Source: a virus
Virus record (IMG/VR): IMGVR_UViG_3300023278_002686
Coordinates: 1 to 64,000 of that record
DNA: 64,000 nucleotides
Reading direction: 5' to 3' (one strand)
A model generated the notes under the pieces. That model saw nothing but the letters and a program-made list of their open reading frames with translations. It had not been told where the DNA came from and did no database searches. The position numbers were made by a program, and so were the translations under genes. Positions 1 through 3,167 of this stretch are shown piece after piece. The first letter of the stretch is position 1. Every line of letters begins with the position of its first letter.

Positions 1-39
1 TTTCTTACTTTCCAAAATATATAAACAATATTTTTCATA

Positions 40-222
40 CTAGTCCTTTTTTTTACATGTACAAGCAAAACTATCTATTGAATGATCCGATTCTCCTAAT
101 ACAATCACATGATGTTTAATACAAGTATGCCACGAATGCCCATTTTTACATGTTGAATCTGACCGCATACATCTACAGGAACATATAGATTTTTGATTAC
201 ATACAGGACATAAATTATTCAT
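40..222 (-). CDS. small Cys/His-rich (zinc-binding) hypothetical protein
   Basis: CPVC, CSCRC, C..GH.WH.C motifs; AGGAG SD upstream. Confidence 0.6.
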   Translation of the reverse strand: MNNLCPVCNQKSICSCRCMRSDSTCKNGHSWHTCIKHHVIVLGESDHSIDSFACTCKKKD

Positions 223-239
223 ATAAACTCCTTATAATA

Positions 240-321
240 AACCCTTTGGAAGAATCGAACTTCATACTTATCCACCTAACTTAAAGATTTGTTTCGAAGA
301 CAAACATTAGGAGCAAAGGGC
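240..321 (-). tRNA. non-canonical D-arm-less tRNA-Arg(UCG)-like RNA
   Basis: 8-bp acceptor GCCCTTTG/CAAAGGGT, anticodon arm TTTGT-CTTCGAA-ACAAA, T-arm GAAG-TTCGATT-CTTC; no D hairpin. Confidence 0.7.
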
Positions 322-359
322 AATTTTATATATCAGTTGCTTTCCTATGATGTTTATAC

Positions 360-551
360 TTATTTTAATTCAAGTATTATAGAATCATCTTCAGTATTAA
401 TAGCCTTCCAAATTGAACCAGTTGAATTAGTCCATTCACAATCTTTTGTTGAAAGATCTAATAAGCTATTAACTTTTGTTTGTTCCCAATTTTCAGAATC
501 TTCTAAAAGTTTTTGAAAGTTTACCTTAATAGTGATTTTTTTATTTAACAT
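360..551 (-). CDS. hypothetical protein inside tRNA array
   Basis: AGGAGG SD, 63 aa, same strand as array. Confidence 0.6.
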   Translation of the reverse strand: MLNKKITIKVNFQKLLEDSENWEQTKVNSLLDLSTKDCEWTNSTGSIWKAINTEDDSIILELK

Positions 552-564
552 ATAATCCTCCTTA

Positions 565-636
565 AGCTTCTTAACGGACTCGAACCGATACCTTCAGATT
601 GGAAATCTGTAATGCTGCCATTAACACCAAAGAAGC
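565..636 (-). tRNA. tRNA-Gly(UCC)
   Basis: cloverleaf, anticodon loop TTTCCAA, GGTTCGAGTCC T-arm. Confidence 0.9.
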
Positions 637-641
637 AATTT

Positions 642-727
642 TGAGACGTAATAGAATTGAACTATCTGACAACCACCACACATACATACGTCAAGAGTTT
701 TACAGACTCCCGTGTGGAATACATCTC
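642..727 (-). tRNA. non-canonical D-arm-less tRNA-Tyr(GUA)
   Basis: 8-bp acceptor GAGATGTA/TACGTCTC, A73, anticodon arm GGAGT-CTGTAAA-ACTCT, T-arm ATAG-TTCAATT-CTAT; no D hairpin. Confidence 0.75.
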
Positions 728-3138: not shown

Positions 3139-3167
3139 ATTATATATTATAGTAAAGAAAATGTCAA
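3139..3167 (-). promoter_or_regulatory. sigma70-type promoter driving the tRNA/ncRNA array
   Basis: exact TTGACA-N17-TATAAT. Confidence 0.75.

Follow-up and report, generated by a model that had tools for sequence, protein, structure and literature searches.

Outside organelles the cloverleaf is, to our knowledge, treated as universal for tRNA. The (8/4) tRNAs and allo-tRNAs have Ser, His, Ala or Cys identity, and the paper describing them mentions neither a Tyr or Arg species nor a long-range D helix (PMC5389517). D-armless tRNAs are listed for mitochondria only in a 2020 review of non-canonical tRNAs (PMC7609411), and tRNA-Tyr is given as one of the rarest isotypes in tRNA arrays (PMC4758250). 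We describe here two genes, one for a tRNA-Arg(UCG) and one for a tRNA-Tyr(GUA), that have no D hairpin and form instead a D-like helix with the variable region; we call this layout rewired. They lie at 240..321 and 642..727 of the window, by which we mean the first 64 kb (64,000 nucleotides) of the 155,054-bp phage record IMGVR_UViG_3300023278_002686 from IMG/VR, whose G+C content is ~25%.

Rewired tRNA-Tyr and tRNA-Arg form a widespread class, the conserved design occurring in far more than a hundred tRNA arrays of phages and bacteria, and the two genes very probably encode working tRNAs of this class. Particular to the window are the presence of both types in one AT-rich phage array, a Tyr gene that is the only tRNA-Tyr of its genome, and an Arg gene that is the only member with a UCG anticodon found in a descriptor scan of 3.46 Mb. 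The author of a preliminary description of the two genes knew of no earlier account of their architecture. Full-text searches agreed, giving no description of the fold and nothing closer than the (8/4), D-armless and array papers; the tRNA-array papers likewise contain no description of it.

The two genes and their fold

Both genes are read from the minus strand. The Arg gene (240..321) consists of 81 nucleotides (nt) plus the discriminator U at 240, with no encoded CCA. Its acceptor stem of 8 base pairs (bp) is formed by GCCCUUUG (321-314) and CAAAGGGU (248-241). The 5′ strand is followed by the linker CU and then, with no D hairpin, by the hexamer CCUAAU (306..311), the 5′ strand of the long-range helix, which runs through G305 into the anticodon stem UUUGU/ACAAA. 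The anticodon UCG (295..297) is carried in the loop CUUCGAA, with U33 and A37. After the anticodon stem come UCUUUAA and the hexamer complement GUUAGG (275..280), which lies in the variable region and makes six pairs with 306-311, one of them U-G. Immediately downstream is UGGA (271..274), an unpaired GG like G18G19 followed by A271, which resembles the ArgRS determinant A20. The T stem GAAG/CUUC has 4 bp and the T loop is UUCGAUU. For a variable stem this gene has only a possible 3-bp CUU/AAG.

The Tyr gene (642..727) is tightly packed in the array, 3 nt after tRNA-Asp and 5 nt before tRNA-Gly. It has 85 nt plus the discriminator A at 642, again with no encoded CCA, and an 8-bp acceptor stem with 5′ strand GAGAUGUA and 3′ strand UACGUCUC. 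The linker UU leads, again with no D hairpin, to the hexamer CCACAC (712..717), G711 and the anticodon stem GGAGU/ACUCU, whose loop CUGUAAA holds the anticodon GUA (701..703) with U33 and A37. Twelve nt separate the anticodon stem from the hexamer complement GUGUGG (676..681), which pairs with 712-717 and lies within the loop of the variable arm; the UGG that follows it (673..675) has an unpaired GG that is invariant in the family. The variable stem enclosing the hexamer complement is formed by UGACG (689..693) and UGUCA (667..671). The T stem AUAG/CUAU has 4 bp and the T loop is UUCAAUU.

The layout claimed for both genes in the preliminary description (8-bp acceptor stem, 2-nt linker, hexamer, no D hairpin, 4-bp T stem) is thus what reading of the minus strand gives. 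Its further point, that the variable region holds the complement of the hexamer followed directly by TGG in the DNA, holds for both genes in the sequence and in the folds, the minimum-energy folds of both containing the hexamer helix. The distance from acceptor stem to anticodon stem is 9 nt in both genes versus 17-21 nt in ordinary tRNAs of the same loci.

Neither gene is called by ARAGORN at its default or relaxed threshold, and Rfam RF00005 (gathering threshold 29 bits) gives no match to either even at E <= 10; the tRNA-Sec model RF01852 has no match in the window. Among the cloverleaf features of RF00005, both genes lack the D hairpin between positions 9 and 26 and the 7+5 stems, and both have the 5-bp anticodon stem, the 7-nt loop with U33 and purine 37, and the UUCRAnn T loop. 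The features that define the rewired family (hexamer pairing, NGG directly after it, and an 8+4 acceptor branch) are present in both. With R1, a covariance model for which the two window genes and one homolog were used, the Arg gene scores 84 bits and the Tyr gene 89 bits, each score being to a model partly built from the gene itself.

Taken alone, the hexamer helix and the anticodon arm within it are nested. The Tyr type has in addition a variable stem, in which the bases after the anticodon stem pair with those after UGG. It occurs in 35 distinct stem sequences (e.g. UGCC/GGCA, UGAC/GUCA, UGGC/GCCA and UACC/GGUA, with UGACG/UGUCA in the window), and its anchored length averages 4.46 bp versus 3.09 +/- 0.10 bp in shuffles. 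With the downstream hexamer enclosed in this way, the Tyr type is a true pseudoknot. The same pseudoknot was considered for the Arg type and rejected, the stem averaging 2.48 bp versus 2.15 +/- 0.19 bp in shuffles; the Arg-type fold is simply nested. Of the suggestion that both genes encode a permuted or pseudoknotted tRNA, the pseudoknot thus holds for the Tyr type only.

Relatives, covariation and conserved nucleotides

The neighbouring DNA polymerase had no close relatives in a search, and in distant relatives of that polymerase (36-43% identity) the tRNA array is not kept beside it. Arrays of the distant relatives were located with RF00005 and then retrieved. They were searched with a structure descriptor of our own and with R1, and the two methods alike find the same layout in distant relatives of the phage. 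Examples are an Arg(UCU) gene in one relative (L082:14529-14613) and a Tyr(GUA) gene in another (L092:2746-2833), the latter adjoining an ordinary tRNA-Tyr. For scans of IMG/VR and of bacterial genomes we used a DNA pattern that picks out the shortened distance from acceptor stem to anticodon arm. Several motifs were fixed in the patterns used for gathering homologs, which in part imposed the conservation seen for CC and, in the first scans, for GG.

In 3.46 Mb of loci the descriptor gave 147 matches, and shuffled sequence gave 1, which excludes chance. The distinct genes among them comprise 81 with anticodon GUA, 29 with UCU and the single UCG gene of the window; with the strict descriptor no other anticodon was found in these loci. 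In IMG/VR the DNA pattern placed the Tyr type on more than 120 contigs, a minimum among the matches listed, and the Arg(UCK) pattern matched 56 contigs, of which ~52 are real. Among the Tyr-type genes, 64/72 sit in loci with other tRNAs. ARAGORN recovers 1/72 Tyr-type and 0/29 Arg-type genes.

Among cultured phages, BLAST of three Tyr-type genes against the collection gave no match. BLAST with the Arg type found only Nitrincola phage 1M3-16, where the gene lies 2 nt before an annotated tRNA-Met and is itself unannotated in the RefSeq record, and Salicola phage SCTP-2, where it is also unannotated. In bacterial genomes the Tyr pattern gave 86 matches, ~55 of them real and mostly in Planctomycetota, complete chromosomes included. 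Five Planctomycetota genomes were examined. Each has an ordinary tRNA-Tyr in a small cluster, the standard Thr-Tyr-Gly locus, and carries its rewired Tyr gene inside a dense array of ~30 tRNAs in 3 kb; of 121 sampled Planctomycetota genomes, 5 have a match to the Tyr pattern. We therefore rejected the reading that this is the native tRNA-Tyr of Planctomycetota: the ordinary gene is present in 5/5 genomes, the rewired gene sits in the dense array, and its frequency is 5/121. The rewired Tyr gene moves with accessory tRNA arrays rather than being characteristic of the phylum. Cultured bacteria that carry the rewired type include Schlesneria sp. T3-172, Lacipirellula limnantheis I41 and Thalassoglobus neptunius KOR42.

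Some further genes with related features were noted. A model match at L263:6509-6592 (minus strand) has the rewired layout and the anticodon ACG (Arg) and immediately adjoins a rewired Arg(UCU), so that the layout is not confined to UCU and UCG. A Trp(CCA)-like gene at L229:9778-9853 (plus strand) and L267:4810-4885 (minus strand) is matched weakly by the model (32 bits) and seemingly has no D hairpin. In a 285-kb phage, an Arg(UCU) gene at L091:3805-3884 (minus strand) has 7+5 stems, 8 nt replacing the D arm, and a different and weaker extension of the anticodon arm; this may be a second route of D-hairpin loss. Several other genes of four Planctomycetota chromosomal arrays, with ~30 tRNAs in 3 kb (L369, L381, L367 and L388), score 36-45 bits on the tRNA-Sec model and are probably (8/4) class II tRNAs.

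Natural covariation of the two hexamers had been proposed from the window genes alone, with loss of the pairing in homologs set beforehand as the observation that would count against it. MAFFT set the downstream hexamers out of register, and an alignment by covariance model was used instead. Among the 74 distinct sequences of the Tyr-dominated alignment, 98.0% of the cells of the hexamer helix are paired, and double changes occur at 4/6 pairs (25, 44 and 27 at individual pairs); with the 3′ partner slid by 1-3 columns, 40-53% are paired. For the 47 distinct sequences of the Arg-dominated alignment the value is 94.9%, and 6/6 pairs show double changes. Slid-partner controls over both alignments give 35-53%, far below either value. 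Homologs of both types thus keep the pairing, and the proposed covariation is sustained. For the Tyr gene of the window an alternative 7/5 reading with G49-U65 is possible. The eighth acceptor pair shows 25 double changes in the Tyr-dominated alignment, and this covariation favours 8+4 over 7+5.

The GG was required by the first scans, and the Tyr scan was rerun with GG left out of the pattern. It is then found one base after the hexamer complement in 91/91 distinct genes (87 UGG, 2 CGG, 2 AGG). The preliminary description had the 3′ D strand and the G18G19 motif moved downstream of the anticodon arm. For the GG this stands, its downstream place and invariance fitting a G18G19-like role; the downstream hexamer strand, on the other hand, corresponds to the 5′ D strand.

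The main ArgRS determinant of ordinary tRNA-Arg is A20, the base after G18 G19, and A73 with G1-C72 is the identity set of bacterial TyrRS. In the rewired genes the base after GG is A in 27/29 Arg-type genes and in the Arg gene of the window, and is mixed in the Tyr type, where A73 is present in 81/81 genes and G1-C72 in 78/81. None of these three features was imposed by the search patterns. CCA is encoded in 60/81 Tyr-type and 23/29 Arg-type genes.

Decoding role, proposed working and alternatives

The ordinary tRNAs of the phage, as called by ARAGORN at the relaxed threshold, cover 19 amino acids, Tyr alone missing, and the gene at 642-727 supplies the sole Tyr anticodon among the tRNAs of the genome. 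Tyr codons number 53 per 1000 codons in the long reading frames of the phage. CGA is its commonest CGN codon, and ARAGORN finds no other CGN-reading tRNA in the phage genome, the only other Arg call being Arg(UCU). The same replacement of ordinary genes is seen more widely. Over 26 arrays with at least 15 ARAGORN tRNAs, each amino acid is present in 69-96%, except Tyr, at 8%. An ordinary Arg(UCU) gene was found in 0/29 loci carrying a rewired Arg(UCU), against 18 such genes in the Tyr-selected arrays.

On this sequence evidence, we think it likely that the two genes give rise to working elongator tRNAs whose core is rewired, one for Tyr (GUA) and one for Arg (UCG, which would read CGA and CGG). 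They would be transcribed with the array, receive CCA from a phage nucleotidyltransferase and be charged by host TyrRS and ArgRS. CCA is not encoded in the phage array genes checked, and a CCA-adding-type nucleotidyltransferase encoded by the phage (36757-37113, plus strand, in a 443-amino-acid frame; Pfam PolyA_pol, 130 bits) fits for that reason. A search for a phage-encoded TyrRS or ArgRS found none, so host enzymes would have to charge the rewired tRNAs.

In an ordinary tRNA the strand 22-25, position 26 and the strand 27-31 are continuous, and face 39-43, 44 and then 10-13. In the rewired tRNAs the 6-bp hexamer helix closes around the anticodon arm, which it extends by way of a G-U pair standing in for 26-44. 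The upstream hexamer, running straight into the anticodon stem, would take the place of the D-stem strand 22-25, and the downstream hexamer, following the 3′ anticodon strand, that of the strand 10-13. NGG(A) would then stand where the D loop has G18 G19 (A20) and contact an ordinary T loop. Three new joins would be made: 9 to 22, 44/45 to 10, and the end of the D loop to 49. In textbook structures 9-23-12 and 45-10-25 form triples and A21 lies near 48; the new joins thus link neighbours, which could allow both the L-shape and the contact of GG with the T loop to be retained. The variable stem of the Tyr type would occupy the place of the class II variable arm, with the displaced D strand and D loop as its loop. 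What the data show are the helices and their covariation, conserved nucleotides of synthetase identity and the replacement of ordinary genes; the L-shape, charging and use on the ribosome we infer.

Several points weigh against working rewired tRNAs. Some phages, and each of the five Planctomycetota genomes examined, have an ordinary tRNA-Tyr in addition to the rewired one; decoding thus does not always require the rewired form. The discriminator of the Arg gene is U73, in a family that mostly has G or A. Both window genes have weak z-scores for the fold (-1.3 and -0.7). In aligning the homologs, sequences were fitted to the structure of the model, yet the hexamers are anchored by conserved flanks. 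Finally, the three-dimensional model is reasoned from textbook tRNA contacts.

The coexistence of the two forms would also be expected of tRNA-shaped RNAs that do not decode, acting as decoys or sponges for tRNA-cleaving defence nucleases of the host, or as regulators, and leaving translation to host tRNA-Tyr and tRNA-Arg. We hold this to be improbable. A decoy for a nuclease that recognizes the variable arm should retain that arm, which is the very part that has changed; and a decoy would not explain the conserved A73, G1-C72, A after GG, U33, purine 37 and exact anticodon, nor that in most arrays the rewired gene fills the Tyr or Arg(UCU) gap of an otherwise complete set. Decay is a far poorer account still. 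Pseudogenes that had lost the D arm by deletion, with coincidental complementarity of the hexamers, would escape ARAGORN and Rfam as these genes do, and other odd or weak tRNA-like genes occur in the same array. Over 170 homologous genes nonetheless have the layout in common, and all its helices show compensatory changes; the descriptor matches far outnumber those in the shuffled control (147 vs 1), and the ordinary counterpart genes are absent; we regard decay as next to ruled out.

A different view would accept working tRNAs and deny the rebuilt core: the hexamer helix would merely extend the anticodon arm of a flexible, boomerang-like molecule with no equivalent of the D stem or elbow, the GG being used otherwise. 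The Arg-type fold, a plain nested long arm with a bulge, would suit it, and mitochondrial D-armless tRNAs function with no contact between D loop and T loop (PMC7609411). A loose molecule of the mitochondrial kind, however, would need none of the following: the full UUCRAUU consensus kept by the T loop, the invariant unpaired GG at a fixed distance past the helix, the A after GG that is specific to the Arg type and matches the known A20 determinant, and an acceptor branch that still has 12 bp (8+4). We give this view little credence, and retain working tRNAs with a rewired core.

Evasion of host nucleases, suggested in the preliminary description, may be a reason for phages to carry such tRNAs. 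For arginine the only nucleases we know of are colicin D-type anticodon nucleases. For tyrosine, published work shows that Septu and retron-Eco7 PtuAB act against phages by cleaving tRNA-Tyr in its variable arm, and the tRNA-Tyr of phage T5 is reported to escape thanks to its distinctive variable loop (PMC13096335, PMC11555353). The pseudoknot-tied variable arm plausibly makes the rewired tRNA-Tyr a natural candidate for such escape. A bolder proposal, which we put forward tentatively and consider rather doubtful, is that rewired tRNA-Tyr and tRNA-Arg are a separate, horizontally moving structural class of tRNA that evolved as defence-proof replacements: with the variable arm and D region locked in another topology, they would be chargeable by host synthetases, usable by the ribosome and unrecognized by nucleases like those of Septu and retron-Eco7 PtuAB. 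Were it true, the cloverleaf would not be obligatory for bacterial-type translation. The rewired design offers a concrete hypothesis for the phage-host arms race over tRNA-cleaving defences.

The array and comparison with known tRNAs

The ends of the record repeat each other over ~70 bases (window 1-70 and the last ~70 bases). This overlap indicates that the genome is circular or terminally redundant, with the minus-strand tRNA array spanning the junction: the array occupies 240-2730 of the window and continues at the opposite end with four more genes, for tRNA-Arg(UCU), tRNA-Lys, tRNA-Gln and tRNA-Cys (154623-154927 of the record). Upstream of it lies a candidate promoter (3139..3167, minus strand), proposed from its match to the sigma-70 consensus alone (TTGACA-17-TATAAT, 12/12).

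The array holds other unusual genes, all on the minus strand. A tRNA-Ser(UGA) (896-981), whose fold combines a D hairpin and a long variable arm with acceptor and T stems of 8 and 4 bp, is called by ARAGORN at the relaxed threshold only and is below the Rfam gathering threshold. A tRNA-shaped RNA (1075-1205) has an acceptor stem, the T arm AUUGG/CCAAU, a hairpin insertion of ~57 nt replacing the D loop and an irregular anticodon loop; it is called by neither ARAGORN nor Rfam. Next to it, a weak tRNA-Ala(UGC) (1208-1280) scores 23.7 bits on RF00005 against the 29-bit cut-off and is called by ARAGORN at the relaxed threshold only. A tmRNA-like gene of 126 nt (1519-1644) scores 45.1 bits on the Rfam tmRNA model (cut-off 47), with both halves of the tRNA-like domain matched and very little in between. 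Between tRNA-Leu and tRNA-Pro, a gap of ~160 nt (1728-1889) has no tRNA or Rfam call.

The rewired genes matter for annotation, since ARAGORN and RF00005 miss them and inventories of phages and tRNA arrays therefore wrongly seem to lack Tyr or Arg(UCU); the unannotated gene beside tRNA-Met in the RefSeq record of Nitrincola phage 1M3-16 is an example. They also present a natural, widespread design in which the same parts are joined in another order and which apparently works with ordinary bacterial synthetases, EF-Tu and ribosomes. It could thus serve as a direct test of which connections of the tRNA core are essential, and it may provide new scaffolds for orthogonal tRNA design.

With ordinary class II tRNA-Tyr(GUA) and class I tRNA-Arg the rewired genes share the acceptor stem with its discriminator, the 5-bp anticodon stem, the 7-nt loop with U33 and A37, the UUCRAUU T loop, the long variable region of Tyr, the setting in phage arrays and, in most relatives, the CCA. 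The start U8 U9 C10 C11 after the acceptor stem presumably resembles that of Escherichia coli tRNA-Tyr. They differ from the ordinary cloverleaf in having no D hairpin, in a D-like helix that uses the variable region and encloses the anticodon arm, and in their 8+4 rather than 7+5 stems. In the circularly permuted tRNA genes of Cyanidioschyzon merolae, too, tRNA parts stand in an altered linear order, and processing restores an ordinary cloverleaf. The ends of the rewired genes, in contrast, are normally placed, and the mature RNA itself would carry the rearranged connectivity.

Bacterial tRNA-Sec (RF01852) is like the rewired tRNAs in its 8-bp acceptor stem, 6-bp D-type helix and long variable arm, and the rewired Tyr genes of Planctomycetota arrays match its model weakly (23-27 bits, cut-off 47). 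The anticodon of the rewired genes, however, is not UCA, and tRNA-Sec, whose T stem has 5 bp, possesses a true D hairpin. The (8/4) tRNA-Ser and tRNA-His and the allo-tRNAs share with the rewired genes the 8-bp acceptor stem, the 4-bp T stem, the long variable arm and the occurrence in phage clusters, and they differ in being cloverleaves with a D hairpin (long stem, tetraloop), which the rewired genes do not have (PMC5389517). It is the tRNA-Ser(UGA) of the window that looks like an (8/4) phage tRNA-Ser (Mukai et al. 2017, PMC5389517). Identity differs as well, the window genes having the anticodons GUA and UCG, and the Tyr type A73 with G1-C72.

The mitochondrial D-armless tRNAs (for example nematode and mammalian mt-tRNA-Ser) likewise have no D hairpin and are functional in translation (PMC7609411). 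They are shortened, with a short replacement loop and often degenerate T loops, and they occur in organelles only, with adapted partner proteins. The rewired genes are unlike them in their full length (82 and 86 nt), their covarying 6-bp helix, their conserved GG and consensus T loop, and their presence in phages and bacteria.

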